A DNA stretch of 32,000 nt, taken from NCBI GenBank assembly GCA_025839675.1, contig CP104013.1, positions 3,180,001-3,212,000 of the forward strand, given 5' to 3'. The position numbers and the translations under genes are program-made. Every line of letters starts with the position of its first letter. The stretch's first letter is position 1. The notes beneath the pieces are model-generated. The model was not told the origin of the DNA. It worked only from the letters and a program-made list of their open reading frames with translations, and did not search any database. Source of the stretch: Candidatus Lokiarchaeum ossiferum (GTDB lineage Archaea > Asgardarchaeota > Lokiarchaeia > Sigyniarchaeales > Promethearchaeaceae). Shown one piece after another: positions 1,846 to 29,110 of the stretch.

Positions 1846-2856
1846 TTATTGATATCGCGATTGGCTGATAACATTGACCGTGCGAATAAATTTCTCAGAT
1901 AACTCGTCGTTTCCGATAATGGTCAAAAGAGAATCAACGATATTACGATCTTCACAGAGAACGGGAATGGCACCGTAGGTTAAGGGAAAAAGTGAAACGA
2001 AAGAGATCGGTATTACTATTTCGCTACCAGTATCAGAATCCGCAAATTTCAACTTTCCACTCGGATTACATAAGATACCAAAGAAATTATCTGGATCAAG
2101 ACCAGAAACGCAAAGATATGACACGATTCCGCCAATATTTAATGTATCAGCTTCTTCAACCATTTTTTGAAATCCAACATTAGCGTTTGCACTGAACGCT
2201 TCAACTGTGATGCTAAAATTCGCAGTGCTAACGGCCCGTGCATCAATATTTAATCCACTGGAGTTGACCAAACCATAATAATAGAAAACTGGATTTTGAA
2301 TAGAATCTAGAATAGTGCTGATATTCTGAACAAGTTCCAATTCTTGATAATTTTCTGAAAAATAAGCACCTTTAGCGATATCAGACCCCATTCCACATAG
2401 ATAGATAGCACTTCGGACATTATTGCTAAAGAGTTCAACTTCTTGATCTGTGATTTTACCAGAACCAAAATTATCATCAATTTCCTTCCGGAGATGATAA
2501 ATACTCGATCCAATATTATCAGCATTCAAGGGCCACTCCTGGTTATGATCGTGAACAATAGTCAAAAGCGTTTGTTGGATTCGAATGGTGATTAAACAAA
2601 TCTTTTCAAAAAATGAAAAAGCAATTATTTGGTCTCGAATTCCTAAATCATTCCAATTTTCTTCACTCGAAGAGAACGCAGCAGATGATATACTTGTAAT
2701 TGCATTACTATCGAGTTTAAGGTCAGTGTTTCTTCCTGTTTTAGCAATGGATAGTCCATTTTCATCACTTAAAAGAGCCATAATTGTTGCTTTAGATGAC
2801 CGTAAAATTGAAGAGAGATGTTTTACCAGATTTTCCCGAACGCTCATGATTTTCAA
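1846..2856 (-). CDS. tandem Roadblock/LC7 (MglB-like) domain protein, 336 aa
   Basis: The N-terminal half (LSSILRSSKATIMALLSDENGLSIAKTG...AITSISSAAFS...) and the C-terminal half (NPVFYYYGLVNSSGLNIDARAV...EAFSANANVGFQKM...) each follow the Roadblock pattern. It has the same length and architecture as the 11763..12764 product. The start is TTG 2856 or ATG 2847, directly after an in-frame stop. Confidence 0.7.
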   Translation of the reverse strand: MKIMSVRENLVKHLSSILRSSKATIMALLSDENGLSIAKTGRNTDLKLDSNAITSISSAAFSSSEENWNDLGIRDQIIAFSFFEKICLITIRIQQTLLTIVHDHNQEWPLNADNIGSSIYHLRKEIDDNFGSGKITDQEVELFSNNVRSAIYLCGMGSDIAKGAYFSENYQELELVQNISTILDSIQNPVFYYYGLVNSSGLNIDARAVSTANFSITVEAFSANANVGFQKMVEEADTLNIGGIVSYLCVSGLDPDNFFGILCNPSGKLKFADSDTGSEIVIPISFVSLFPLTYGAIPVLCEDRNIVDSLLTIIGNDELSEKFIRTVNVISQSRYQ

Positions 2857-3020: not shown

Positions 3021-3106
3021 GTGCGGGGAGAGGGCTTCGAACCCTCGCGCCTCTACAGGACTGGATCCTAAGTCCAGCATCGTGGACCAGACTTGATTAT
3101 CCCCGC
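3021..3106 (-). tRNA. tRNA-Leu (anticodon UAG), class II with long variable arm
   Basis: The minus strand reads GCGGGGA...CTGGA-CTTAGGA-TCCAG...GAGGG-TTCGAAG-CCCTC-TCCCCGC-A. It has a 7-bp acceptor stem and a canonical T-loop. CCA is not encoded, and an oligo-T run follows. Confidence 0.9.
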
Positions 3107-5327: not shown

Positions 5328-8012
5328 GTGAAAACAAAAATCGGTTTTTTTATAAATTGTTCTAGAGAGAAGAATAGTGTTCATATTGGAGATTATACAA
5401 TGAATCTTTTCGTAATATTTTCTTCTTTCGAAATGATGCTTTCTTATACAAATATAGTAATAGGAATCATTCTTTTGATTAAACAAATTCATGATATAAG
5501 AAGAAATGTAATTTCTCGAATTCTTACATTTACAAAAACATACTTTCTTTTTATTTTGATAAATTGTTGTTTATCGATTTTTGATTCACTAATTTATCCA
5601 GAAAGGACGTTATATTATGTTTATATTTTGATATTTCTAGGTATTGGAAATATAATCTTTTATTTTAAGTTAAGACCAAAAAATATTCCAAATTTGCTTT
5701 TAAAAAAACCTGAATTGAAATCTTATCCAAGGGGAAAAGTGAGAATTGGAACAATTTTCCATGAACAAAAAATATTGAAGAAATTTAAACTTAACATTGA
5801 AGATATAAAGAGACATATTATTATCTATGGTCAAACAGGAACAGGAAAAACATGGTTTTTAAAAAATTTTCTATATCAATTTTCAAAAAATTTTCCAGAA
5901 ATACCTTTTATGTTATTTGAATTTAAGGGAGAATATTCAGATTTATCAAGCACTATTTCGAATGTAGATATTATTCGTCCTGGAGAAAACTTTAAAATTA
6001 ATTTATTTGATTGTGATATATTTCAGAAAGAGATATATGTTGAAATATTGTTTGATAGCTTAAAATCTTGTCAAATAATTGAAGGAAATGCGGATTTTTC
6101 CCCCCAAATGGAAAAAGTATTAGTCGATGTATTAAAAAAAGTATGTTTCGATTCAAAAAATCAATCATGGAATACATTATTTACTATTATGGACGAATAT
6201 GCAGTTCAAAATGTACGAAACATCCCAATGTTAAATCAAACAATCATAAGTATAAAGAATAGATTACGTCGATATGCCTCAGGCACACTTTCATCTCTTT
6301 TCAATTTCAGTGAAGATTCTGATCATATATCTGATTTATTATCAAAGAATTGCGTTATTGATCTTGGCCATATACTTAAATTGGGAGGATCTAAAGAGGA
6401 TGTAATTTTTTTTGCAAATCTAATTCTTAAATGGATTTGGGAATTTAATATGAAAAAAAATCCATCAGATAGCCTGAACCACATCACCATTTTTGAAGAT
6501 GCTTCTTATATTGCTTCAAGAAAGCTTTTAGAAACCTCACACTTATCAACTTATTTAGAGGATATTGCACTACTTTTACGAGGTAAAGGAGAAGCGCTTA
6601 TAACACTAACAACTACTTTGGATATTAGCAAAAACATCATTTTAAATTCTGGAACGAAATTTTTTTTTAAATTTAATGAAAATCCTGAAGATATTAATTA
6701 TTTTATTGGATTAAAAAGTCAAGATCATATTGATATTAATGCCCTTAATATTGGTTTTTGTTTAGCAAAAATCGATTCTATTTCAGAGGTTTTTCTATTA
6801 AAAGGAGAAACTCTTAGAAATGATAAGAAGAGAATTAAAAGAAAGGAAAAAATAGTGACCCAAAGGAAGAACAATATTTCATGTAAAAAAAATAAAAAAA
6901 AAAAAGATTTCTCACAATTGGATGCAAATAACAAAGTTTTGAAATCTAAATCAAGAATTATAAATGAAGAATCTAATCATGAGGGGTGTGCAAATGAAAT
7001 GCAAATAAATAAGGATGAAACTCACTTTTCACTAACTAAATTGATACAGCAGGCAGAAGAATTGTATTTGATTGAGAATTATAGGCAATCAACAGAAATA
7101 CTTTCCATTGTACTCCATGATCTAAAAAAAAATTCAAAAAATTTCATAAATATAGACCATAATCCCGATATTATTAACGAAATAAATGATATCATTGATA
7201 AGAAAATTGAAAAAACATTGGAAAATGAAGTCCTTAGTTCCAATGAAATTTTAAACGTGTTAAATATAACAAAAAGGATAAATCAGAAATATTTTTTGAA
7301 TAAAATAGAAGTTTCAAAGCCTTTGGAACAAAATCATCTCCCCTTATTAAACCAAAACCCCATGTTGAAAAAAAAAGTGGACATAATTCAAACAGAAAAG
7401 AAAATTAATAACCAGAGTTCTTCAGCTCCAGGAATCATGTTGTTTTATTTCAATATGATCACAGGACCAGAAAAATATTATGAGATCAATAAACTTAAAC
7501 TGCCAGATCATATAGAACAAAAAATTGCAAAAAGTATGGACACGAATTCAGGAGAATTTTGCTTGGAAATTGAAGGTTACTTTTTTTATATAAATATTTT
7601 CAGCATAGAATCAATATGGGCGCGTGGAAAAGAAGAAATAATTCAATTAGTCATTTTTTATAATTTAACTGAATTTAATAAGAATTTTATGTTATCTCGA
7701 CTAAAAAAAAAAACTCATTCTCTAATTAAAGCCCTAAAACAAAGAAAGACATTATTCTATGCATTTTATTTACTGGATCCCACCAAAATGCTTATTAAAG
7801 GTGAGGAAATTAAGAAAGAAAGCATTTTCATTAAGATGGAAGTAAAAAAAATATATAATCATTTCGTGTATCAGAATAATTCGAAACACAAAATTGAAGC
7901 CATTTTCAACAAAGAATATAGATTGGACAACATAGATTTCGAGTATTTTAATTCTATCATAGAAGAATTATTATTAATTGAAAAAAGCAACCCATCCTTC
8001 AATTCAAAATAA
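5328..8012 (+). CDS. membrane-anchored HerA/FtsK-superfamily (DUF87-like) P-loop ATPase with long C-terminal extension
   Basis: There are three N-terminal hydrophobic helices, followed by RIGTIF...HIIIYGQTGTGKT (Walker A), ITIFEDASYI (Walker B) and LLLRGKGEALITLTTT. A Lys-rich linker and about 370 further residues of unknown function come next. The start is GTG 5328 or, more likely, ATG 5400. Confidence 0.7.
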   Translation: MKTKIGFFINCSREKNSVHIGDYTMNLFVIFSSFEMMLSYTNIVIGIILLIKQIHDIRRNVISRILTFTKTYFLFILINCCLSIFDSLIYPERTLYYVYILIFLGIGNIIFYFKLRPKNIPNLLLKKPELKSYPRGKVRIGTIFHEQKILKKFKLNIEDIKRHIIIYGQTGTGKTWFLKNFLYQFSKNFPEIPFMLFEFKGEYSDLSSTISNVDIIRPGENFKINLFDCDIFQKEIYVEILFDSLKSCQIIEGNADFSPQMEKVLVDVLKKVCFDSKNQSWNTLFTIMDEYAVQNVRNIPMLNQTIISIKNRLRRYASGTLSSLFNFSEDSDHISDLLSKNCVIDLGHILKLGGSKEDVIFFANLILKWIWEFNMKKNPSDSLNHITIFEDASYIASRKLLETSHLSTYLEDIALLLRGKGEALITLTTTLDISKNIILNSGTKFFFKFNENPEDINYFIGLKSQDHIDINALNIGFCLAKIDSISEVFLLKGETLRNDKKRIKRKEKIVTQRKNNISCKKNKKKKDFSQLDANNKVLKSKSRIINEESNHEGCANEMQINKDETHFSLTKLIQQAEELYLIENYRQSTEILSIVLHDLKKNSKNFINIDHNPDIINEINDIIDKKIEKTLENEVLSSNEILNVLNITKRINQKYFLNKIEVSKPLEQNHLPLLNQNPMLKKKVDIIQTEKKINNQSSSAPGIMLFYFNMITGPEKYYEINKLKLPDHIEQKIAKSMDTNSGEFCLEIEGYFFYINIFSIESIWARGKEEIIQLVIFYNLTEFNKNFMLSRLKKKTHSLIKALKQRKTLFYAFYLLDPTKMLIKGEEIKKESIFIKMEVKKIYNHFVYQNNSKHKIEAIFNKEYRLDNIDFEYFNSIIEELLLIEKSNPSFNSK

Positions 8013-8041
8013 TTTTAATCTAAATAATATATATATAACTT

Positions 8042-9256
8042 ATGTTAATTGGAATTGTAGGAAAACCTTCTTCAGGGAAAAGTACCTTCTTAAATGCAGC
8101 ATGTCTAACCAATGCGAAAACTGCGAATTATCCATTCACTACGATAAAACCTAATGTGGGTAAATCCGCTATTCGTGTGAAATGTGTTTGCAAAGAGTTT
8201 TCAGTTGATGATAATCCCAAAAATTCCCAATGCATCAATGGAGAACGTTTTATTCCAATTAAATTATTAGATGTTGCGGGATTGGTTCCAGATGCTCATT
8301 TAAATAAAGGAAGAGGAAATCAATTTCTATCCGATCTCTCGAGAGCAGATGTATTGATTCATGTAATTGATATATCTGGAAGTTTAAATGCTGAAGGACA
8401 AGATGTCAAAAAAGGAAGCCACAATCCAATGGATGATGTTTTATTTTTAGAAAAAGAAATCAATTATTGGTTTCGGGAGATCATTACTCGAAAAGATTGG
8501 GGAAAATTTGTTCGAAAAATCGAGCAAGAAAAATTATCGTTCCTTGAAATGTTATTAGAGAGATTATCAGGAATTTCTATCAAAAAAGAACATATTATCA
8601 AAGCTATGCAAGAACTAAACTTGGATTTTGAACATTTAACTATGTGGTCCGACGAAGATATCTTGAATTTTGCATCAAAACTACGGCAAGTATCAAAACC
8701 AATTTTGATCGTTGCCAACAAGATAGACACACCATATAGCGCAAAAATTTACGATAATTTAAAAACTCAGTTGAAACAAAGGATAATTCCATGCAGTGCA
8801 TTGGCAGAATATTGGTTGAGGCAATTCGAACAACGTAATGTAATTGAATATTTGCCAGGAGACAATTCTTTTAAAATAACTAATCCTGATTTAATAACAC
8901 CCACTGAGATAAAATCTTTGGAAGAAATTCAAAAAAAAATCCTTGACAAGTATGAGGGAACGGGAGTTCAGAAAGTTCTTAATTCTGCAGTTTTAGAAGT
9001 GCTAGATAATATTGTTGCTTATCCTGTTTATGATCTTCATAATTTTTCAGACAAAGACGGAAATGTTTTTCCAGATGCATATATTGTGCAAAACGGAACC
9101 AAACTAAAAGAGTTTGTGAATGATAAAATCCATTCAGATTTAGCCAAAAATTTTATTTATGGAATAAATGGGCGCACAAAAATGAGATTGGGGGAAAATT
9201 ATGAATTACAAAATAATGACGTCATTAAAATAGTATCCGCAGCAAAATCAAAATGA
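8042..9256 (+). CDS. Obg/YchF-class GTPase, Ygr210-like, with C-terminal TGS domain
   Basis: G1 is GIVGKPSSGKST. It also has YPFTTIKPNVG, G3 DVAGLV and G4 NKID. The C-terminal ...GENYELQNNDVIKIVSA is TGS-like. The protein is 404 aa. Confidence 0.8.
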   Translation: MLIGIVGKPSSGKSTFLNAACLTNAKTANYPFTTIKPNVGKSAIRVKCVCKEFSVDDNPKNSQCINGERFIPIKLLDVAGLVPDAHLNKGRGNQFLSDLSRADVLIHVIDISGSLNAEGQDVKKGSHNPMDDVLFLEKEINYWFREIITRKDWGKFVRKIEQEKLSFLEMLLERLSGISIKKEHIIKAMQELNLDFEHLTMWSDEDILNFASKLRQVSKPILIVANKIDTPYSAKIYDNLKTQLKQRIIPCSALAEYWLRQFEQRNVIEYLPGDNSFKITNPDLITPTEIKSLEEIQKKILDKYEGTGVQKVLNSAVLEVLDNIVAYPVYDLHNFSDKDGNVFPDAYIVQNGTKLKEFVNDKIHSDLAKNFIYGINGRTKMRLGENYELQNNDVIKIVSAAKSK

Positions 9257-9550
9257 AAAAAAATTAGTTGTTTTCTTTGGATGAAAGTCCGACATATACC
9301 AGTAAAAGAATGATTAATCCAGCACTGAATAATTGTAATATCAATTTATAATTATCCATAGACCAATTAGATAATTGCATAGGTAAAAAGACCATGAATT
9401 AAAAGAAAGATCGAATAAATAAAAAAAAATTGGTACAAAATTAAGCTAACATTCTGTAGAGCTAAAAAACTCGCAATAATAGCCAATAGAAATTTTATTA
9501 CAAAAAGTTTATTACTAATTTAAAAAAAGAAATTTGAAAAATGCTAAAAG

Positions 9551-9623
9551 TGGACCTAGGGGAATTTGAATCCCCGACCCCCTGAGTGCAAGTCAGGTGC
9601 TCTACCAACTGAGCCATAGGCCC
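9551..9623 (-). tRNA. tRNA-Ala (anticodon UGC)
   Basis: The minus strand reads GGGCCTA-TG-GCTC-AGTTGGTA-GAGC-A-CCTGA-CTTGCAC-TCAGG-GGGTC-GGGGA-TTCAAAT-TCCCC-TAGGTCC-A (73 nt). It carries the G3:U70 alanine identity pair. CCA is not encoded, and CTTTT follows. Confidence 0.95.
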
Positions 9624-9675
9624 TATTGAAAATAAAATTAAAAATACAAAAATTATTACAGTTCTCTAAAGAGAA

Positions 9676-9700
9676 AAGTAGGGTCGTTATGACCCTACTT
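9676..9700 (-). other. perfect 10-bp hairpin immediately 3' of 16S, followed by a U-rich tract
   Basis: On the plus strand, AAGTAGGGTC (9676-9685) and GACCCTACTT (9691-9700) are exact reverse complements around a 5-nt loop. In the RNA sense the hairpin is followed by TTTCTCTTT and, further on, by T5, T5 and T4 runs before the tRNA. Confidence 0.6.
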
Positions 9701-9708
9701 AATGGTGT

Positions 9709-11203
<1,495 letters not shown>

Positions 11204-11762
11204 ATTAATTCGTTCTCGATCCTTCCAAATGTTAAATTATCTCGCTATCGTTATAAACTTAAGTTTAAGAATTGGCAGGTTAACTCAGAGAGTTTACCTG
11301 CCCGTTGCTTCGTTGTAACTACATCGGTCCCCCTACTGTGTAAAAGGACTTCATATGTTTTCCCAAGTCGATGGAAAGGAGTGTTTCATATCAATGGCTA
11401 TGCCGTGATCCACACTCACGCCGATAAAGACATGGGTTAGGTATAATCAATTAAATCGATTACAAAATATACAATGAAGATGATAATTTAAACATATCGA
11501 AACTTCATTCTAAAAATCTGAATTTGAATCTTCCCTAATAAATTTTAACATTTCGAGAAAAAAGGGGATCTCTTCCAGCCTCCACTATTTTATTTAAATT
11601 TTTCTGATTGTTATTTTTTTTGGGAAGAGAAAATCAAATATAAATTTAATTCTACTATTTTAATTGAATTGCAATTAACTTTCGATTTTTGTTTTAAAAA
11701 TTTTTGAAGTATTTTAAAAATAAAAAAGGGGAGTAATAATAAACCAGTATCGGTGATATAAA

Positions 11763-12764
11763 ATAAAGCTCCTTGAACAAGTAAAACTTAACTTAGATAA
11801 AATCAAAAACACTAAGGGGGTAGAGAATGTTGTACTAACCCAACGAGATGGCAATCCTATCCAACATTCTGGAATTTGGCTCTCCAAAGATGAAATCTTC
11901 AGCATTTCTGCAGCCACTTCAGCAATATTTAATTGTGGAATTCATCTTCATGACGACAATCTGAAATATATTTTAATAGAGGGAAAGAAAGCTAAGGTAC
12001 TGCTTTCTCCTTTGATGAATTATGGAGGTGAAACATTAAGGAAAATTATTGAAGCTCAAGGACTTCAGGGAAATAATAATGAATTTTTTCTCGCAATTAC
12101 GACACAACAGATGATAAACCTAGGAAGTATATTTCTAAAAACTCGGAACAACATTATAGACATAAAAAAGTCATTGATTTTATCCGGAGAATCTTTTATC
12201 CCCCCTCTTAGACATTTTTCTGAAAAGAAAATTAATGATATGTTTGATTCAATTGATGTTAAGGAAAATTTATCATACAATGATTCAATTGCTTATTTTT
12301 CATTCAATATTTCTAAAGAATTGAATCAAAACTTGACTAATGTCTTAAAAGAATTTTCAAATCATACATTGGATCTAATTGATGCATTTATTACTTATGA
12401 AGGAGGATTTGTAATTGCTGAAAAAATCAATCCAAATATTATGGAATTGATGGATATTGATGCAAAAGCCACAATGAGTTATTCTTTATTTTCGACGGCA
12501 GACAAATGTGCATGGCTTTTGAAAAAAATGCATATAGAATCGATTTTGTTAGAATGCAAGGAATGTTTTCAATTTATAAATAAAGTTGGCAATGGGATCT
12601 TTTCTACAACTATTGCTAAAGGTCGACAAAAATTGGGATTACTAAGATTAATCATACCGAGATATTGTAAAAAAATTGTGGGGATTCTCCAAAATATTAA
12701 TCTCGAAAGTAATTCAGCTAAAATTCCATCATTTCAAGATCTTTTTTCAGAATTAATTATTTAA
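11763..12764 (+). CDS. tandem Roadblock/LC7 (MglB-like) domain protein; N-terminus lacks a canonical start codon
   Basis: The ORF track starts this gene at TTG 12012, but the frame is open from 11757, after TGA 11754-11756. The extra 85 codons encode a textbook Roadblock N-terminus (KLLEQVKLNLDKIKNTKGVENVVLTQRDGNPIQHSGIWLSKDEIFSISAATSAIFNCG...ILIEGKKAKVLLSP). A second Roadblock-like domain lies at ...IDAFITYEGGFVIAEKI...AKATMSYSLFSTADKCAWLL. An SD-like GGTGAT at 11752-11757 sits 5 nt upstream of ATA 11763. Confidence 0.7.
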   Translation: MKLLEQVKLNLDKIKNTKGVENVVLTQRDGNPIQHSGIWLSKDEIFSISAATSAIFNCGIHLHDDNLKYILIEGKKAKVLLSPLMNYGGETLRKIIEAQGLQGNNNEFFLAITTQQMINLGSIFLKTRNNIIDIKKSLILSGESFIPPLRHFSEKKINDMFDSIDVKENLSYNDSIAYFSFNISKELNQNLTNVLKEFSNHTLDLIDAFITYEGGFVIAEKINPNIMELMDIDAKATMSYSLFSTADKCAWLLKKMHIESILLECKECFQFINKVGNGIFSTTIAKGRQKLGLLRLIIPRYCKKIVGILQNINLESNSAKIPSFQDLFSELII

Positions 12765-12780
12765 AAGGAGAGAATATTGA

Positions 12781-13680
12781 TTGAACATAATTGAAATATT
12801 GTCATCTTCAAACATTGAAGAGGTGTCCTTAATTTTTCAAAGCTTATTAAATCGCACTCCAATTTTAATAATAGGTTCAGATGAGTTTATCGTAGAAGAA
12901 CTGATTAATTCCCTAACTAGTTTCATGCCTTTTAGAAATATATTGATATTTTTTGATGATTTTATTCATAATGACGATTATCAGGCACTGATTGAAAATG
13001 AAGAAGTTGATATTGAAACAGAAAGAAATCTTTTTATTTCCTTTCCCAATTCTGTTAACAAGGTCATTAATCTCACTGAAATCTTTTTTTCATGGATAGT
13101 TGGATGCACTGATAATGAAAGAAATCGAAAAGTAAATGAAATAATATGGAATAAATTCTATATCAATCATGATTTTTTTTTAAAAATAGATATCACAGAC
13201 AATAAAATAAAGGCAGAAGTGATAGGTAGGAAATTTCACCCATTAGATTTAACATTTGAAAGATGGTTATTTCAGAATGCAATAAATCGAACTGAAATTT
13301 CCATAGAAAAAATGAAAAGAGTGATTGCAAAAAGCTATAAAAAAAGCAAGATTTCAGAAGCTGATTTAGAAGAACTTATGGATTTTTCGTTTGAAGAATT
13401 AGAGTTAAAAGAAAATATCTTAAAAAAAGAGATCATTAATTTTTTCCAGGCATGTAAAAGAACTTTTAGTGTGCTAAATAGATTAAAAAATATAGAATCT
13501 TTCGGTTTCTCTACTAAAATTTCAACAAGGACAATTTATTCAACAATAGCCTATAAGTTTTCTTCTATTGGGAGAATTTTAGAATTTATTGAAAAAAATT
13601 GGAAAATAAATTTTTTTACACTTCTTGATGCGAAAAAGACATCAAATTTTACTGATACATTTGAAAGTTTATGGGGATAA
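12781..13680 (+). CDS. hypothetical protein (299 aa), middle gene of the GTPase operon
   Basis: TTG start directly follows an in-frame TGA, with GGAG 10 nt upstream. The N-terminal alpha/beta region is ...LLNRTPILIIGSDEFIVEELINSLTSFMPF..., and the C-terminal half is helical and charged. I recognise no named family. Confidence 0.6.
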   Translation: MNIIEILSSSNIEEVSLIFQSLLNRTPILIIGSDEFIVEELINSLTSFMPFRNILIFFDDFIHNDDYQALIENEEVDIETERNLFISFPNSVNKVINLTEIFFSWIVGCTDNERNRKVNEIIWNKFYINHDFFLKIDITDNKIKAEVIGRKFHPLDLTFERWLFQNAINRTEISIEKMKRVIAKSYKKSKISEADLEELMDFSFEELELKENILKKEIINFFQACKRTFSVLNRLKNIESFGFSTKISTRTIYSTIAYKFSSIGRILEFIEKNWKINFFTLLDAKKTSNFTDTFESLWG

Positions 13681-13682
13681 AA

Positions 13683-14258
13683 ATGATTGTTAACTATAAT
13701 GAAAAAAAAATTCAAATCAAAATCGTTTATTATGGCTGTGCCCTCTCAGGAAAAACAACCAGTCTAAAAAGTTTATTTTCAGGCTATGGTAGAAATGATT
13801 TGTTAACTTCGATTGAAACTACAACTGGACGTACACTTTTCTTCGATTTTGGAACACTTCAAATTAAAGGAGGAGAATGGACAGTAAAAATTTCACTCTA
13901 CTCAGCCACAGGTCAAGATTTTTATGCTTCAACTAGACCCGCCACATTATCTGGAGCAGATGGAATAGTATTTATCATAGATTCACAAAAGAAATATCTA
14001 TCGGATAATATTTCTTCATGGAATGAATTGAACAGATATTATCAAAACAGTCTAAATAATATGCCCTTAATTGTTTGTTTAAATAAGCAGGATCTCCCAG
14101 AATTATTGGATACGGATGTAATAATTAAAAATCTTAACCTAAATAGCTACAATAAAGTAGAAATAATTAAAACGATTGCATCAAGGGCAGAAGATGTGCT
14201 TCAAGCTTTTAAAAGGATGTTAGCTCAAATATTTCCGAAAATAACTATCAAGAGTTGA
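13683..14258 (+). CDS. mglA: MglA-family small Ras-like GTPase
   Basis: MIVNYNEKKIQIKIVYYGCALSGKTT aligns with MglA [27 protein letters not shown]. It has GRTLFFDF (switch I Arg), SATGQ (a G3 lacking Asp, as in MglA TVPGQ) and NKQD (G4). The track start at 13671 is in frame, but ATG 13683 matches the family N-terminus and lies 2 nt after the upstream stop. Confidence 0.85.
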   Translation: MIVNYNEKKIQIKIVYYGCALSGKTTSLKSLFSGYGRNDLLTSIETTTGRTLFFDFGTLQIKGGEWTVKISLYSATGQDFYASTRPATLSGADGIVFIIDSQKKYLSDNISSWNELNRYYQNSLNNMPLIVCLNKQDLPELLDTDVIIKNLNLNSYNKVEIIKTIASRAEDVLQAFKRMLAQIFPKITIKS

Positions 14259-14281
14259 ACTTCTATTAAAATCCTCACTGA

Positions 14282-14295
14282 TTTTTTTGATTTTT
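14282..14295 (+). terminator. oligo-T termination signal after the GTPase operon
   Basis: A T7 run (14282-14288) and a T5 run (14291-14295) lie about 25 nt past the stop codon. Archaeal RNA polymerase terminates at oligo-dT tracts. Confidence 0.5.
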
Positions 14296-14669
14296 ATTCG
14301 TTCTCAATTATTTTCTATAATATTGAGATTTCATTTCAAAAAATAATTGTTTATACAATAATTCTTATCCTTTTGTCCTTTCTAATATCAATTACAGAGG
14401 GATTTACTGGAAAAGTCGTTATTTTTCTAATTTTTATGGTGTTGGGCAGTTATTTTTTTTTGGAAATCGAAAAAATTAAAAATTTTAGAATTTTCCTAAG
14501 GATTTTAACTGAAAATAGCTTCTTTTTTAGTTTTCAAGATTTTTTTTTAATGAGAATGACTATTATTGATTTTTATCTACAATTCACAAAATTTATTGTT
14601 CTTTTCTTGTCAATTTTGAATGTCTCTCTCATTTTTTTAGAAATTATTTGAGAATAAGTGATCAACTCC

Positions 14670-19780: not shown

Positions 19781-22700
19781 TTGAAAAAATTTTTGATGAA
19801 AAAAAAAATTTTTTTCTACATCTTATTACTCACAATATTAATCAAAAATTTTGAAATGGTAGATGCATGGATATTCCCAGCTCCTCCTGCAATTATGACA
19901 GATAAGCCATGTTACTTTCCAGATGAAAATATCAATATCACAGCTGAATGGAATCTTTATTGTGATAATAATTCAATTTTTGAGATAAAAATTTTATTTT
20001 TAGAGAACCAGCCAAATAGTTATAGTTCATTAAATACCATGTTTTCAAGTAGCTTGACAACCATACCAATTCCAACCAATGATTCATCGCTACACGATTT
20101 TGAACAAGTTTCTTATTTCACAACAGTTCTAAATTCATCAGAATTATTCAATCTTTCATTTGAGAATACAAAAGAAATTTGGGTCACATTAATCTTCTAT
20201 TTATGGATTGGAGGAGAAATAAATGCTGCTTCATTAATAAAAACATTTTGCGAAATTAGTTTACAAAAATATGAACCATCCTTTCAAAATTCATTGTCCA
20301 ATTATAGCTTCGAGATAGGGGATAACTATCTATTAAATAATACGATTTTAGCATCTGAAAATAGCAAAAAAATGTATCCTACTAAGGAAGTATTGTGTAT
20401 TATTACCAATGAAATCACATGTTTATCAAAAAATATGAGTTCATTAATCCAAGATGGCCAATTAACGCTTAATATCTCAAAATTTGGACAATTATCGGTT
20501 GGAACTTATAATATTACATTTATTCTAGACTTTACCAAATTCTTTTGTAATTCAAATTTAACATTAATTATGAATATCAAGGCAAAATATGTTGAGATAT
20601 CTTCCTTAAACAGTACCAATATCCCGATGTCGTATGATATAAAATTTTTCTTTGATTTTCAACTATTAGATCAATGGGGAAAATCGTTTATAATTGAGAA
20701 TTTCACTTGGTTATTCAATAGTGATTTAAATTGGAGCGAGTGTGAAATATTAGAAGATTTTTATCGTATTTATTTTGAATTTCCAAAAATCGAAGGTGAA
20801 TATTATATTAATCTAAGTTTAGATAATTTCGAATATAACGTCCAATCTTACAGTAAATATTTCCATTTCTATAAAGAGGAAGTTGATTTAAATTTGTACT
20901 TAAGAAATATCACTTTAAATCAAGAAATATCATTTTTAGTTGAGGAAAATTTGGGTTTTTCCTTGGAAAGCATAGAAAAATCCAATTTAAACTTGGAATT
21001 CTTTGATGGGGATATTTGGATATCTATCGACTATAATATTATTGAAAAATATCCATCTATTATGAAAATTGTAACTTCATGGTCTATTTTTGAAAATTTT
21101 CCTCAGTTTTTACAAAATTCGTATTTTTATTCCCGAATAACGTTTCTTGGTAATGAAGTACTGCTTTCTGCAACTTCTAATATACTTACGATTAACCTCC
21201 CAATAATTAATTTTACTGTCAACTCAACATCAATCATTCTGGGACAAAAAATTCAGTTTCTTTTTGAGAATTATAGCATTTACCATCCAGAATCATATTT
21301 TTGGGATTTTGGGGATGGAATAGGATATTCCACAGAAATAAATCCTGTTTATCAATATTTATTCCCTGGAAATTACTCAATTACTTTGACAACATTGAAT
21401 TTTGAGGGTTATAATAATACATTTAATAGAGTTGGTTATATATTGGTAGATGAGGATAGAATACCTTTAGCAAAATTTGAAATCAGTCAAAATTTAACTA
21501 TTCAAAATGAAACCATTGATTTCATATTTACTGGTGATGAAGGAAATGGACCTTGTACGTATTTATGGGATTTTGGAGATGGTTTTTCTTCAAATGAAAA
21601 AAATCCAACGCATAGGTACAATACACAGGGCAATTATTCTATTTCCTTAACTATAATTGACTGTAATCACGATTCAAGCCAAATTATTAAAAATGATCTA
21701 GTTGGAATATTATTCGACGAACTGCCAATTGCAAATTTTTGGTTCAAAAATGAAATTTTAATAATTAACCAAGAAATCCTGTTTTTTTATAATGGGACGA
21801 TTGGTAATGGAAATGAAACATATCTATGGAATTTTGGGGATGGAACATTTTCAATGGAAAAAAATCCAGTTAAAACTTATAATAATACGGGAAGTTATTC
21901 AATTAGTGTTGAAGTTACAGATTGTGATGGAGATACAGATCTAATTATTCAAAATGAGATAATTAATATTGAAACAGACATATTTCCTATTGCAGATTTT
22001 AATAGTTCAAACCAATCATTTTTGACAAATGAAGAAATCTTCTTTTTTTTTAATGGAACAGAAGGAAATGGTGTGAATTTATTTGAATGGAATATCGGGA
22101 ATTTAATTTTTCATGAAAGAAATCCGATAGTCGTTTTCAATGCCTCTGGATCTTATTCAATCAGATTAAGTATCATTGATTCCAACGGAGATAAAGATTC
22201 TATACAAAAAGACAACTTTATTATTATTTTAGAAGACTTGGTTCCAGAAGTTGATTTTTTTTGTCCAATAAAACAAATAGTTGCAAATGAGGATGTTCAA
22301 TTTTTTTACAATGGAACAATTGGTAATGGAAATGAAACTTATATGTGGAATTTTGGGGATGGAACATTTTCTACGGAAAAAAATCCTGTAAAATGCTATA
22401 ATAATATTGGAATTTTTTCAATTAGGGTTGAAATTACAGATTCTGATGGAGATACAATGTTTTTACAAAAAGATGACTTTATAATTATTTTAGAAGACTT
22501 TCTTCCAGTAGCGGATTTCTATTGTTTACAAAATAAAATTATAGGTGGAGAAGAAGTTCAATTCTTTTATAATGGGACAATGGGAAATGAAAAAATGACT
22601 TACTCTTGGGAATTTGGAGATAATACATCCAGTAATGAAGAAAATCCAAAAAAAAGGTATTCAATTCCTGGAAACTACACAATTAAACTTAAAGTGACTG

Positions 22701-23920
22701 ATTTCGATGGGGATATAAATTTCAAACTATTATCAAATTATATTGAAGTTTTACCAGACTATTTTCCAGAAGCAGAATTTAATTATTCACAAAATACAAG
22801 TATCGCTGGAGAAAGTATTCAATTCATGTTTACTGGAAGTTTAGGAAATGGGAATCTTACTTACTATTGGAAATTTGGAGAGCATCTTAGTTCATCCTTA
22901 TCAAATCCGATTATTTCGTTTGAATATCCAGGGATTTATTCTGTTTTTTTACAAATCATGGATGAAGATGGAGATATTGGAACATTGACAAAAGAAAACG
23001 TGGTGAACATTATTCCTGATATTCATCCTAAATCGAATTTTACTTGTTCACAAAATACAAGTATCGCTGGGGAAAGTATTCAATTCACATTTACTGGAAG
23101 CTTAGGTAATGGAAATCTTTCCTATTATTGGAAATTTGGAGAACATCTTAATTCGTCCTTACCAAATCCGATTGTTTCTTTTGAATATCCAGGGATTTAT
23201 TCTGTTTTTTTACAAATCATGGATGAAGATGGAGATATTGGAACATTGACAAAAGAAAACGTGGTGAACATTATTCCTGATATTCATCCTAAATCGAATT
23301 TTACTTGTTCACAAAATACAAGTATCGCTGGAGAAAGTATTCAATTCACATTTACTGGAAGCTTAGGTAATGGAAATCTTTCCTATTATTGGAAATTTGG
23401 AGAACACCTTAATTCGTCCTTACAAAATCCGATTGTTTCTTTTGAACATCCGGGAGAGTATTCCATATCATTGTTTATTTCTGATATCGATGGAGATATA
23501 GATTATTTAACTAAAAAGAATTCTATAAATATTTATCCCGATCTAAAACCTATTGCACACTTCTATTTTAATAGTTCATCATTTGTCACTGGGAAGGGCA
23601 TCCAGTTTTATTTTAATGGAACAAATGGTAATGGAAATATAACTTGGACCTGGAATTTTGGGGATGGGAGCATTTCTAAAGAAATTAATCCTATTAAACA
23701 ATATGAAAAACCAGGAAATTATGTTGTTTCTATTATTGTTGTAGATGATGATGGAGACAAAGATATTTTTAGTTTAAATATAGATATCAAAAGAGATAAT
23801 TGGATTGAAATCTTTCCGTTTTCGATAATAACGAGCGTTATTGGAACAATTTCAATTCTTACCAGAAAATATTGGAAGAAAAAAATTAAATTGGTTGCTC
23901 TAAATTCAATTAAGATTTAA
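19781..23920 (+). CDS. large cell-surface protein: signal peptide, ~490-aa unknown N-terminal region, 10 PKD domains, C-terminal TM anchor
   Basis: The N-terminus KKKIFFYILLLTILIKNFEMVDA is signal-like. There are ten W-x-F-G-[DE] PKD cores (YFWDFGDG, YLWDFGDG, YLWNFGDG, FEWNIGN, YMWNFGDG, YSWEFGDN, 3x YYWKFGEH, WTWNFGDG). Many N-x-S/T sequons are present. The C-terminus IFPFSIITSVIGTISILTRKYWKKK is a TM helix plus a basic tail. The start is TTG 19781 or ATG 19796. Confidence 0.85.
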   Translation: MKKFLMKKKIFFYILLLTILIKNFEMVDAWIFPAPPAIMTDKPCYFPDENINITAEWNLYCDNNSIFEIKILFLENQPNSYSSLNTMFSSSLTTIPIPTNDSSLHDFEQVSYFTTVLNSSELFNLSFENTKEIWVTLIFYLWIGGEINAASLIKTFCEISLQKYEPSFQNSLSNYSFEIGDNYLLNNTILASENSKKMYPTKEVLCIITNEITCLSKNMSSLIQDGQLTLNISKFGQLSVGTYNITFILDFTKFFCNSNLTLIMNIKAKYVEISSLNSTNIPMSYDIKFFFDFQLLDQWGKSFIIENFTWLFNSDLNWSECEILEDFYRIYFEFPKIEGEYYINLSLDNFEYNVQSYSKYFHFYKEEVDLNLYLRNITLNQEISFLVEENLGFSLESIEKSNLNLEFFDGDIWISIDYNIIEKYPSIMKIVTSWSIFENFPQFLQNSYFYSRITFLGNEVLLSATSNILTINLPIINFTVNSTSIILGQKIQFLFENYSIYHPESYFWDFGDGIGYSTEINPVYQYLFPGNYSITLTTLNFEGYNNTFNRVGYILVDEDRIPLAKFEISQNLTIQNETIDFIFTGDEGNGPCTYLWDFGDGFSSNEKNPTHRYNTQGNYSISLTIIDCNHDSSQIIKNDLVGILFDELPIANFWFKNEILIINQEILFFYNGTIGNGNETYLWNFGDGTFSMEKNPVKTYNNTGSYSISVEVTDCDGDTDLIIQNEIINIETDIFPIADFNSSNQSFLTNEEIFFFFNGTEGNGVNLFEWNIGNLIFHERNPIVVFNASGSYSIRLSIIDSNGDKDSIQKDNFIIILEDLVPEVDFFCPIKQIVANEDVQFFYNGTIGNGNETYMWNFGDGTFSTEKNPVKCYNNIGIFSIRVEITDSDGDTMFLQKDDFIIILEDFLPVADFYCLQNKIIGGEEVQFFYNGTMGNEKMTYSWEFGDNTSSNEENPKKRYSIPGNYTIKLKVTDFDGDINFKLLSNYIEVLPDYFPEAEFNYSQNTSIAGESIQFMFTGSLGNGNLTYYWKFGEHLSSSLSNPIISFEYPGIYSVFLQIMDEDGDIGTLTKENVVNIIPDIHPKSNFTCSQNTSIAGESIQFTFTGSLGNGNLSYYWKFGEHLNSSLPNPIVSFEYPGIYSVFLQIMDEDGDIGTLTKENVVNIIPDIHPKSNFTCSQNTSIAGESIQFTFTGSLGNGNLSYYWKFGEHLNSSLQNPIVSFEHPGEYSISLFISDIDGDIDYLTKKNSINIYPDLKPIAHFYFNSSSFVTGKGIQFYFNGTNGNGNITWTWNFGDGSISKEINPIKQYEKPGNYVVSIIVVDDDGDKDIFSLNIDIKRDNWIEIFPFSIITSVIGTISILTRKYWKKKIKLVALNSIKI
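22788..23462 (+). repeat. 261-bp (87-codon) tandem repeat, about 2.6 copies, inside the PKD gene
   Basis: CACAAAATACAAGTATCGCTGG recurs at 22788, 23049 and 23310. Positions 22921-23070 are 100% identical to 23182-23331 (150 nt). Positions 23072-23146 are identical to 23333-23407. Confidence 0.95.
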
Positions 23921-24568: not shown

Positions 24569-25795
24569 TTGAGCAATTGGGGAACAACTTTGAACAAAAA
24601 TTACCTAGAACAACAATTTTATTGCAAGGATTTATTTATTAATGAAGAATATCTCGATATAAATTATCTTCCAGAAGACATCTTGCACAGAGAACAAGAA
24701 TTAATAATTTTATCAAAAATTTTCATTAAATTAATAGAAAATCCTTTTAAAATAACAAGAAAATTGTTAATTCAAGGGGATGTGGGAATTGGAAAAACAG
24801 CGATAGCGCGTACTTTTGGAATAATGTTGAAAAGAAGTGCGAAAAAACGAAATATAAAAATTGAAGTTGTACATATTAATTGCAGAAAAGAAAGAACACA
24901 TTTTAAAATACTTCAACAAATTTTATTGACACTATCGTATCCAGTTCCTAAAAGAGGTTTCTCTCCTCAAGAATTAATGACTATACTACAAGAATATCTT
25001 GAAAAGAATAAAATATATTTATTCTTAGTATTGGATGAAATGAATCATATACAGAGCTCAGATTATGATTTGATATACGCTTTAACTAGATTAAATGATA
25101 CTACAGGAAAAGATTCTTCGTTTCTCTCTTTATTATATATTGTTCGGGATATCACCCTTTTAAGAAATTTAGACGAATCAACCATCAGCACATTACAAGG
25201 AAATATTCTTTCTCTAAAAAAATATAATAAAATGCAAATAAATGATATTTTAGAAGAGAGAATTAATAAATCAATTCAAAAAGGAGTATTTCCATCTAAA
25301 TTGACTATGATAATATCTGAAAAAATCGAAGATTCAGGAGATATTAGAAAGGGATTAAACATAGTGAGAAATGCAGTTAAAATAGCAGAAATCAAAGATA
25401 AAACAATAGTATCTTATGACGAAATTCACCAAGCGATCAAAAATCTAATCCCAAGTCTACAGGATGATGCTTTGGGAATATTAAATATGCATCAAACAAT
25501 TATACTTTTTTCAATTACTACATACTTCATAGAAAATAAGGAAAAAAGAATTACACTAAATCAACTTAATCCTTATTATTTGAATACTTGTAAAAAATAT
25601 GACCAATTGCCCAGAAAAAGCACTCAAATATGGCAAAATTTACAACAATTACGAAATTTGAATCTCATCAAAATTGTAACTATTTCTAAAAATATGAAAG
25701 GAAGGAAATCTTTTTGTTCAATTAATGATATACCCCTGAACATTTTAAATGAAGAATTGAATCAAAAACTGAAAAATTTTTACTGTGGTAGGTGA
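24569..25795 (+). CDS. cdc6: Orc1/Cdc6 family AAA+ protein
   Basis: It has ...LDINYLPEDILHREQELIILSKIF, Walker A GDVGIGKT and Walker B LVLDEMNHI. The C-terminal winged helix is ...QNLQQLRNLNLIKIVTISKNMKGRKSF. The start is TTG and the protein is 408 aa. Confidence 0.85.
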   Translation: MSNWGTTLNKNYLEQQFYCKDLFINEEYLDINYLPEDILHREQELIILSKIFIKLIENPFKITRKLLIQGDVGIGKTAIARTFGIMLKRSAKKRNIKIEVVHINCRKERTHFKILQQILLTLSYPVPKRGFSPQELMTILQEYLEKNKIYLFLVLDEMNHIQSSDYDLIYALTRLNDTTGKDSSFLSLLYIVRDITLLRNLDESTISTLQGNILSLKKYNKMQINDILEERINKSIQKGVFPSKLTMIISEKIEDSGDIRKGLNIVRNAVKIAEIKDKTIVSYDEIHQAIKNLIPSLQDDALGILNMHQTIILFSITTYFIENKEKRITLNQLNPYYLNTCKKYDQLPRKSTQIWQNLQQLRNLNLIKIVTISKNMKGRKSFCSINDIPLNILNEELNQKLKNFYCGR

Positions 25796-25798
25796 AAT

Positions 25799-26104
25799 AT
25801 GCTGATTGTAAAAAAAATGGTAAATACAGGTTTGTTTGAAGAAATTTTTTCCTCGAAAGGAAGAGCGAAGATAGTTAAGATCTTGGCATTAAGAAATGAA
25901 ATGAATATTTCAAAAATTATTTCCTTAGCAGGCACAAGCCATTCAAGTGCTGAATACCATCTGAATTTCTTAAAAACAATAGAATTTGTTAGAGAAAAAA
26001 AATTTGGAAGAATTCGGATTTTTGAATATCAAAATGATAATTTAGACGCTAGAGCTCTAAAAAATTTAATTCTATTTTGGGAACAAAAAAATGTGGAGTT
26101 ATGA
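25799..26104 (+). CDS. ArsR/SmtB-type winged-helix transcriptional regulator
   Basis: IFSSKGRAKIVKILALRNEMNISKIISLAGTSHSSAEYHLNFLKTIEFVREKKFGRIRIFEY is the typical archaeal wHTH pattern. The gene starts 3 nt after the orc1 stop. Confidence 0.75.
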   Translation: MLIVKKMVNTGLFEEIFSSKGRAKIVKILALRNEMNISKIISLAGTSHSSAEYHLNFLKTIEFVREKKFGRIRIFEYQNDNLDARALKNLILFWEQKNVEL

Positions 26105-26561
26105 GAGCGAACAAATTTTATTGTTATCATATTTTCTATTATTAGTAATAATTTCCATAGAAGATTGTGTTTTTGGAAAAATATTTAACTTTACAATTAT
26201 ATGGGGAATTCTCCTTCGAATTTTCTTTTTTTTTTCTTATAATGAAAAAATCACACCTTCAATTGGAAAAATGTTTCAAAATTTTATTATTGTTATTATT
26301 TTTTTCATATTGTGGAATAAAAACATAATCGGTGGTGGAGATTTAAAGACGATTTTACTTTTCTTATTTTATATCTCTGCACATTCTAACAAACATACGA
26401 TAATATTCCCATATCAACTATTTGATAGAGTTCAATTTTTCATTTCTTTTTTTATGATAATATTTTTCTCAAAATTAATTCAAAAAAAAAAAAAACACTC
26501 TCCAATTTTCAAATTGGGGCCAATTTTTTTAATTTCAATGTCTATTGCAATTTTATTTTAA
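26091..26561 (+). CDS. short prepilin peptidase (A24 aspartic protease, TadV/CpaA/FlaK-like)
   Basis: The protein is polytopic and hydrophobic. The first catalytic Asp lies in ...IISIEDCVFGKI, and the second lies in the signature IIGGGDLK. It overlaps the wHTH gene by 14 nt. Confidence 0.7.
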   Translation: MWSYESEQILLLSYFLLLVIISIEDCVFGKIFNFTIIWGILLRIFFFFSYNEKITPSIGKMFQNFIIVIIFFILWNKNIIGGGDLKTILLFLFYISAHSNKHTIIFPYQLFDRVQFFISFFMIIFFSKLIQKKKKHSPIFKLGPIFLISMSIAILF

Positions 26562-26593
26562 TCGTTTTTTTTAAAGAATTTTAGAATGTAAGA

Positions 26594-28669: not shown

Positions 28670-29096
28670 GATCAATCAAATTTTGGATAAGATGCTATTA
28701 ATGGTATTTGGTTTAATTTCCATCCTAGTTTTTGCACCAATATTATTTTTTTTTTTGGAAAATAATTTTTCTACAATATCAGTTGAAAATACAGTAGAAT
28801 TAGAACAGATTGATTCTGATATATTAAATTTGGCAGAAAATTTTAAAATTTTTCAGGAAGACAATAACGAATCTCAGATATTTTATTTTGAATTCCAAGG
28901 AGTGATTACTGTCTTTTACGAAAATTTGAATAATTTAACTACGTTATATTTGAATTTTTATTACAACGAAACAAAATCTCCGATCTTTAGGCATTTAATT
29001 TTCAACAACGAACTAAATATTACAATTAATTCATACCAGATTAACCAATATTTCTTCCTTAAAGAAAAAAATGTGATTTCACTAATTTTTTCTTAA
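28656..29096 (+). CDS. small membrane-anchored protein of the filament locus (FlaF/FlaG-like topology)
   Basis: A single N-terminal TM helix (MLLMVFGLISILVFAPILFFFL) is followed by a beta-rich region of about 110 aa. It overlaps the ATPase stop, with GGAGGT at 28658-28663. There is no recognisable [KR]G cleavage motif. Confidence 0.5.
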   Translation: MEVIKINQILDKMLLMVFGLISILVFAPILFFFLENNFSTISVENTVELEQIDSDILNLAENFKIFQEDNNESQIFYFEFQGVITVFYENLNNLTTLYLNFYYNETKSPIFRHLIFNNELNITINSYQINQYFFLKEKNVISLIFS

Positions 29097-29110
29097 GGAG
29101 GTGCTAAATC

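Follow-up and report, generated by a model that had tools for sequence, protein, structure and literature searches.

We analyzed a window of 32,000 nucleotides (nt) of Candidatus Lokiarchaeum ossiferum (GenBank assembly GCA_025839675.1, contig CP104013.1, positions 3,180,001 to 3,212,000), in which three adjacent genes of the plus strand encode a tandem Roadblock protein (gene 1, 11763-12764, 333 amino acids (aa)), a probable DENN-like protein (gene 2, 12781-13680, 299 aa) and an MglA-family small GTPase (gene 3, 13683-14258, 191 aa). Genes 1 and 2 are separated by 16 nt, genes 2 and 3 by 2 nt. The trio lies just past the 5' side of the archaeal 16S rRNA gene (9708-11202, minus strand), which is followed by a tRNA-Ala gene, and the two are transcribed divergently. 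The G+C content of the window is about 28%, except in the 16S rRNA gene. An earlier note on this DNA, made from the sequence alone, had given the same coordinates and gaps and had read the locus as a small-GTPase switch operon, which our analysis supports.

The three genes are strictly co-conserved and keep the same order. We scanned one genome per species of the GTDB and found 67 loci with a relative of gene 2. In 64 of them, the relative of gene 2 is flanked directly by a tandem-Roadblock gene on its upstream side and by the GTPase gene on its downstream side, and in the other three a contig end cuts the trio. These loci come from Loki- and Thorarchaeota, plus one metagenome-assembled genome (MAG) labelled Hermodarchaeota. 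Three Loki-type metagenome contigs, MK-D1 (CP042905.2 153565-156053; L004 5001-7489) and two further MAG contigs have the trio as well, with gene order and strand unchanged (together L001-L006). A Thorarchaeota locus (L009) has the trio among entirely different neighbors, with NurA and HerA genes downstream. In Loki-type loci, and not in Thorarchaeota, the trio is linked to the 16S rRNA gene, and upstream of the trio the Loki-type relatives have contig breaks or a 2.6 kb stretch without called gene. We treat the proximity to the 16S rRNA gene as lineage-specific synteny and not as function. A small open reading frame (ORF) after the GTPase gene (14373-14651) was considered as a fourth member and discarded, since it is not conserved in relatives.

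The MglA of Myxococcus xanthus belongs to the group 1 type, with an intrinsic arginine finger (Arg53) and a catalytic glutamine (Gln82). Judged from its sequence, the product of gene 3, which starts at an ATG, is a group 1-like member of the MglA family and not an Arf, a Rab or a Rag. Its best sequence matches in the PDB are the MglA proteins of Thermus thermophilus (99.7 bits, E=1.5e-27) and M. xanthus (94 bits), both 34% identical to it, and these are far ahead of the next ones, Rab11 (38.9 bits) and Arl8/Arl10 (~36-37 bits). Pfam places Arf first (45.5 bits), above Ras (40.7), with Gtr1_RagA below the cut-off at 16.4 bits. This ranking does not contradict the assignment, because no MglA-named model is among the Pfam matches. 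We aligned seven Asgard orthologs with the two bacterial MglAs and found the P-loop GKTT, the R-T of switch I, the G-Q of G3 and the NKxD motif to be invariant. The residues R50 (switch I) and Q78 (catalytic Gln) of gene 3 are thus shared with both MglAs. Its segment GRTLFFDF aligns with DRTLFFDF of MglA, in an alignment that begins at residue 2-3, and its G3 motif reads SATGQ, the Asp being replaced by Ser or Thr in all seven orthologs (S/TATGQ, where MglA has TVPGQ). A G3 motif without the Asp of other P-loop GTPases is among the defining MglA features of Wuichet and Sogaard-Andersen, as is, for bacterial MglA, the insertion that extends the segment between G1 and G2 (PMC4316618); this segment is two residues shorter in gene 3 than in the two bacterial proteins. 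The likeness to MglA that had been noticed by eye in the N-terminal alignment, GRTLFFDF, SATGQ and NKQD was thereby verified. MglA-type GTPases have already been recorded in Asgard archaea (PMC10933270; bioRxiv 10.1101/2024.02.28.582541).

Gene 1 encodes two Roadblock domains fused in one chain, as the earlier note had proposed, and both halves were recovered by profile searches. The N-terminal Roadblock/LC7 domain (aa 1-141, 11763-12185) scores 31 bits with Pfam Robl_LC7 over aa 8-85, where the cut-off is 23, and has the expected topology in the AlphaFold2 (AF2) model. It contains an inserted helix (aa 90-99), and the loop from strand 1 to strand 2, TQRDGNP, is invariant. A linker (aa 142-184, 12186-12314), with predicted local distance difference test (pLDDT) values below 50 over aa 165-179, leads to the C-terminal Roadblock domain (aa 185-309, 12315-12689). 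The single sequence of the C-terminal half matches an MK-D1 Roadblock protein in the PDB (Roadblock3, 9jue_D) with E=0.032, and a profile of 18 sequences (alignment A4) matches it with E=3.7e-5 along almost all of the domain (positions 11-134 of 158). The AF2 model, made with 63 homologs, shows two Roadblock-type modules (pLDDT 81.5), and its whole-chain predicted template modeling score (pTM) of 0.80 suggests that their relative arrangement is defined. The top Foldseek matches of the model are Asgard Roadblocks (Roadblock3), LAMTOR2 and MglB (E ~1e-5 to 1e-4, target-normalized TM-scores up to 0.89), and the Thorarchaeota ortholog has two stretches matching Robl_LC7. An alignment of the two halves with hhalign is in register and non-significant (E=0.18); at the level of sequence they are too diverged for a significant mutual match. 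The family comprises more than 370 proteins of ~333 aa in Asgard metagenomes and genomes, MK-D1 included.

Elsewhere in the window, an ORF of 335 aa (1846-2856, minus strand) gave a weak N-terminal match to MAPKK1_Int/LAMTOR3, with E=0.0012 and below the cut-off. It may be another protein of Roadblock/longin type, of the same size as gene 1. We did not retain it as a paralog of gene 1, to which it has no significant similarity, and it has no match in the PDB.

Gene 2 starts at a TTG, and its product is 100% identical to the protein NEF87_002702 of Ca. L. ossiferum, annotated as hypothetical. A UniRef label on this protein ('DUF4435 domain-containing') was not reproduced by any Pfam match, and both Pfam and NCBIfam gave nothing above noise. 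A word-index search gave 17 relatives; with a profile, the number rose to 235 and the range reached Thorarchaeota proteins of 306 aa with ~22% identity. An exhaustive search of 1.84 billion representatives with a hidden Markov model (HMM) found 95 relatives, all of ~300 aa or fragments; those with a named source are all from Asgard archaea. The residues invariant in the family alignment include R25, D60, F61, E74, R82, W105 and a C-terminal S-x-W-G. The AF2 model (73 sequences, pLDDT 89, pTM 0.85) has an alpha/beta domain that resembles a pseudo-NTPase (aa 1-150, 12781-13230) and, behind it, an all-helical domain (aa 158-299, 13252-13677), with helices at 158-186, 193-199, 203-240, 249-256, 263-274 and 291-298. 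No longin (u-DENN) domain precedes them, as the model begins directly with the alpha/beta domain, and the Walker A motif GxxxxGK[ST] was not found in the family alignment.

This architecture may be read as that of a DENN-like protein. The core of DENN is a minimal three-layer alpha/beta domain that resembles P-loop NTPases and lacks nucleotide- or Mg-binding residues, and it is followed by the all-alpha d-DENN (Zhang et al., PMC3521125). The model of gene 2 is compatible with this layout in that it combines an NTPase-like alpha/beta core, devoid of a Walker A motif, with an all-alpha domain, although the agreement of the helical domain with the d-DENN layout is one of predicted architecture. 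Its weak Foldseek matches in the PDB are to the cores of P-loop/RecA-type ATPases and to the guanine nucleotide exchange factor (GEF) domain of DENND1A (6ekk_B, probability 0.93, E=0.079), the latter with the lowest root-mean-square deviation (rmsd) listed. Model and match list are thus together consistent with what a DENN-like protein would give. On these architectural grounds, and on the published ones given below, gene 2 probably encodes a DENN plus d-DENN-like protein without a longin domain of its own.

According to Liu et al. (bioRxiv 10.1101/2020.10.19.343400; Nature 2021), most Asgard archaea have a conserved operon, predicted computationally, that encodes a Roadblock-superfamily member resembling LAMTOR1, a small GTPase that is Rab-like and not a Rag, and a protein with a DENN domain, and for which the authors propose a folliculin-like regulation of the GTPase. 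The trio has the same three-part composition and occurs in the same kind of organisms, MK-D1 included. We thus consider it likely that the locus is a conserved GTPase regulatory operon of Loki- and Thorarchaeota that corresponds to the Roadblock-GTPase-DENN operon of Liu et al., with which we matched it by composition. Most likely, then, it is a mis-annotated member of a kind of operon whose prediction is already published. The earlier note had taken gene 2 for an orphan and a candidate novel component, and this probably does not stand: an operon with a DENN-domain protein has been described in Asgard archaea, and the predicted fold fits.

Several points weigh against this identification. It equates two operons by their composition and not by accession number. 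The GTPase of Liu et al. is described as 'Rab-like', while that of the trio is clearly nearest to MglA; their Roadblock protein is described as 'LAMTOR1-like' and is not stated in the accessible text to be tandem, as gene 1 is. In the L. ossiferum genome, gene 1 has no canonical start codon, a matter to which we return below. The intramolecular dimer, the 1:1 binding, and the GTPase-activating (GAP) and GEF roles that we propose for the products are drawn by analogy. The other points concern gene 2. Its best Foldseek E-value (9e-3) is that of VirB11, which is not a DENN. The Pfam models DENN, dDENN and Folliculin_C had no match in the 73 family members at E<=1, and searches of PDB sequences with gene 2 alone and with the family profile gave no match. 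Alignment of the family with DENND1A/B by hhalign found nothing, and HMM scores of gene 2 against the C-terminal part of FLCN (FLCN-CT) and DENND1A/B, all with sequences taken from the PDB, fell within the range of shuffled controls (300 shuffles each). The only Pfam signals among the 73 members are sub-threshold matches of coiled-coil type, including Sec2p in 16 of them (best E=0.024). The short local alignments did cover a stretch with a likeness to DENN visible by eye ('LLxR-hhhhh-S/G-x-D...LxxxxP'), which was not counted as evidence.

The results on gene 2 might be thought sufficient to make it a truly new protein, the third component added to a pair of MglA/MglB type. In that case it could be a degenerate pseudo-ATPase resembling RecA or VirB11, with the role of an effector or a scaffold. 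In favor of this are the lack of any sequence-level signal to a DENN-family model or protein, a structural match list headed by ATPases of the VirB11, TadA, PilT, FlaI and FlaH types (E=0.009-0.03) and a family that is small and restricted to Asgard archaea (95 cluster representatives among 1.84 billion). Yet, all these structural matches are weak (query-normalized TM ~0.28) and there is no Walker A motif. True DENN domains also give lists dominated by NTPases, and their subfamilies are ~11% identical to one another, so that tests with DENN profiles and proteins have low power. DENND1A is among the matches, with the best rmsd, and in the sensitive analysis of Liu et al. the third gene in an Asgard operon of the same composition was assigned a DENN domain. 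We regard a non-DENN gene 2 as unlikely, and retain the DENN-like protein in what follows.

Two very distant relatives of gene 2, P0332 and P0309 (within L007 4205-5972 and L008 5001-6885), match the family profile with E ~1e-6 to 1e-18 and have no GTPase gene adjacent to them. Their neighbors are unannotated genes of 255 aa and 311 aa. These proteins may represent paralogous DENN-like families with other partners.

The beginning of gene 1 requires some attention, because it determines whether L. ossiferum has a double Roadblock at all. The frame is open from 11757 to 12764, after an in-frame TGA (11754-11756) that lies inside a GGTGAT motif, and between this stop and a TTG at 12012 it has no ATG, GTG or TTG. 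Translation of the N-terminal Roadblock domain thus has to begin at a non-canonical codon, which in the window is probably the ATA at 11763. Accordingly, the GenBank annotation (NEF87_002701) is truncated to the 249 aa encoded by 12015-12764, from an ATG at 12015. Other Loki-type loci have a similar organization. A canonical start is absent in five of the seven (the window, 11752-11768; L001, 543-578; L003, from 465; L010, from 338; L012, from 2479), and four of the five have an ATA or ATT preceded, at ~3-8 nt, by a GGTGA whose TGA ends the upstream frame. The fifth is L001, where a TAA takes its place before the open frame, with an ATT one codon further on. The GGTGA is kept at the equivalent site in L003, L010, L011 and L012, and MK-D1 has both a GGTGA and an ATG there. 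This suggests that initiation of gene 1 from AUA or AUU is conserved among Loki-type loci.

Alternatively, gene 1 could be damaged in L. ossiferum and yield the 249-aa product from the ATG at 12015 alone, without a double Roadblock. This would account for the absence of ATG, GTG and TTG between 11754 and 12012 and agrees with the length annotated in GenBank. We hold it to be improbable. Of the 83 residues that precede the GenBank start, 77 are identical in the closest homolog (P0018), compared with 80% overall, and this region is thus almost certainly translated. The frame opens exactly at the Shine-Dalgarno-like GGTGA, 5 nt before the ATA, and four other Loki-type loci have ATA or ATT at this site, three of them behind the same GGTGA, while MK-D1 has an ATG. 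The 249-aa product, in turn, would start inside the N-terminal Roadblock fold. We thus keep the 333-aa tandem Roadblock protein as the product of gene 1.

The 16S rRNA in the window ends in ...GGATCACCTCC, and the GGTGAT of gene 1 (11752-11757) and a GGAG 10 nt before the start of gene 2 (12767-12770) are therefore exact complements of its 3' end, and a GGGGAT in the terminal part of gene 2 (13673-13678), 4 nt upstream of the ATG of gene 3, is a complement with one mismatch. The earlier note had called all three motifs complementary, which needs this one qualification. GGTGAT occurs five times in all on the plus strand of the window, and GGAG 85 times, so that the latter is weak evidence by itself. 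Upstream of gene 1, the AT-rich intergenic region common to the divergent 16S rRNA gene contains a TATA-box-like TTTAAAAATA (11713-11722), which we take as a putative promoter element from its position ~40 nt upstream of the start. Runs of T7 and T5 do follow gene 3 (at 14282 and 14291, within 14282-14295), as had been noted, and could be an archaeal terminator. As a distinctive end of the operon they do not hold, since runs of at least five T occur 6.7 times per kb on the plus strand, with 13 inside the operon, one of them a T9. The runs after gene 3 are no more than expected by chance.

A type IV filament-like locus lies 12 kb downstream of the trio (26091-30637) and contains genes for an A24 prepilin peptidase and a T2SSE ATPase as well as a FlaJ-like ORF. 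Its presence had been noted before and is confirmed; the functional link to the trio suggested at the time is not conserved. In bacteria, MglA/MglB sets the polarity of type IV pili, and it is quite improbable that the trio does the same for this machine. In favor of such a role, one could invoke these genes and the T2SSE and FlaJ-like genes ~2.6 to 5.6 kb downstream of the GTPase gene of L002. Against it, L002 is the only one of 76 related loci with such genes in its flanks (none of the other 75 has them within 3.5-6 kb), the trio of Thorarchaeota is in a different neighborhood, and the trio is separated from the filament locus in the window by eight further predicted protein-coding genes, among them TFIIB-like, radical-SAM, PKD surface protein and Orc1/Cdc6 genes, plus a tRNA gene. 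The filament locus itself has an unusual neighborhood, as it stands beside a replication-initiator gene: in 24569-30637, the Orc1/Cdc6 gene is directly followed by genes for an ArsR-type helix-turn-helix protein, the prepilin peptidase and the T2SSE ATPase, and then by two unannotated ORFs, one of which is FlaJ-like by its match in L002.

The window contains a few other features worth recording. On the other side of the trio, the 16S rRNA and tRNA-Ala genes (9550-11202, minus strand) are followed by a gene for a YchF/Obg-like GTPase (8042-9256) instead of the 23S rRNA gene, and the 16S and 23S rRNA genes therefore appear unlinked here. This YchF/YGR210-like GTPase forms, with a HerA-like ATPase (DUF87), a pair upstream of the 16S rRNA gene that is syntenic between the window (5328-9256) and MK-D1 (L004 1-2409). 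A protein of 1379 aa with at least nine PKD domains (19781-23920) is probably a surface protein; a PKD-domain protein is also encoded downstream of the trio in L001. ARAGORN predicts a tRNA-Leu (anticodon TAG) at 3021-3106 on the minus strand, where the Rfam tRNA model was silent at its gathering threshold.

How might the three products work together? We infer from the MglA/MglB structures (Miertzschke 2011), and from the action of MglB on MglA as a dimer, as described by papers citing that study, that the fused Roadblock pair would be the single-chain equivalent of the MglB dimer. It would fold as an intramolecular pseudo-dimer, offer a platform like that of the MglB homodimer, and bind one GTPase at its switch regions. 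It may then speed up GTP hydrolysis, in the way of MglB, by bringing Arg50 and Gln78 of the GTPase itself into position. The DENN-like protein would bind to both the Roadblock platform and the GTPase, and the three proteins would form a split Roadblock/longin plus DENN module, whose counterparts are fused in eukaryotic DENN proteins, FLCN-FNIP and C9orf72-SMCR8. By analogy with the biology of DENN and FLCN, the DENN-like protein could provide nucleotide exchange, or act as a co-GAP and targeting subunit. As for the cellular output, one can only guess at polarity, protrusion or membrane-associated processes.

In eukaryotes, membrane traffic and nutrient signaling are organized by small GTPases together with their Roadblock/longin and DENN regulators. 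For the question of how these regulators arose, the operon is of interest in that it sets all three parts together in Asgard archaea, two of them in culture (L. ossiferum and MK-D1). One could go further and regard the trio as a surviving pre-eukaryotic intermediate, in which a GTPase of MglA1 type (that of the bacterial polarity switch) is under the control of a split longin-DENN regulator, made of a single-chain Roadblock pseudo-dimer and a separate DENN-like subunit, with the amount of the Roadblock subunit throttled by the AUA/AUU start, a proposal that we find tentative and somewhat doubtful. If it were true, eukaryotes would later have fused the regulators and redirected them to Rab, Rag and Arf, and the throttling by a conserved non-canonical start would be a trait of Lokiarchaeales. 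To the published prediction our analysis adds the MglA type of the GTPase, the fusion of the Roadblock pair, the strict co-conservation of the three genes and the truncated annotation of gene 1, and these additions make a direct biochemical test straightforward. The assignment of partners is otherwise hard in Asgard genomes (PMC10933270), and is unambiguous here because all three parts lie side by side in one operon.

The trio can be compared with three known systems. It is closest to the bacterial MglA/MglB of M. xanthus and T. thermophilus in its GTPase, which has the hallmarks of MglA (a G3 motif without Asp, the Arg, the Gln, a long G1-G2 segment) and is likewise encoded next to a partner of Roadblock fold. 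The presence of two Roadblock domains per GTPase, known here from the genes, equals the MglB2:MglA1 stoichiometry. Unlike in bacteria, the two domains are fused in one chain of 333 aa and have diverged from each other, a third and obligatorily linked DENN-like gene without bacterial counterpart is present, and the host is an Asgard archaeon, with no RomR or RomX genes near the trio.

The eukaryotic longin-DENN regulators, such as DENND1, a GEF of Rab35, or FLCN-FNIP and C9orf72-SMCR8, which act as GAPs, differ in that platform and DENN-like part are separate polypeptides in the trio, the platform has Roadblock and not longin topology, and there is one DENN-like unit instead of two. The client is of MglA type and not a Rab, Rag or Arf, and no sequence-level DENN signal was found in gene 2. 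The general plan is nonetheless similar. Both combine a Roadblock/longin platform with a small GTPase, the predicted model of gene 2 has an alpha/beta DENN-like core with a helical tail, and the tandem protein would turn two platform domains towards the GTPase, like the longin pair of FLCN-FNIP. In contrast to Ragulator-Rag, finally, the locus encodes no Rag-type GTPase with a Roadblock domain of its own (Gtr1_RagA stays at 16.4 bits, below the cut-off) and no wrapping subunit resembling LAMTOR1, and its Roadblock pair is fused and not heterodimeric. As in that complex, where LAMTOR2/3, LAMTOR4/5 and the C-terminal domains of the Rags form Roadblock dimers, a Roadblock pair would go with a GTPase as its scaffold, and the best structural matches of gene 1 include LAMTOR2.

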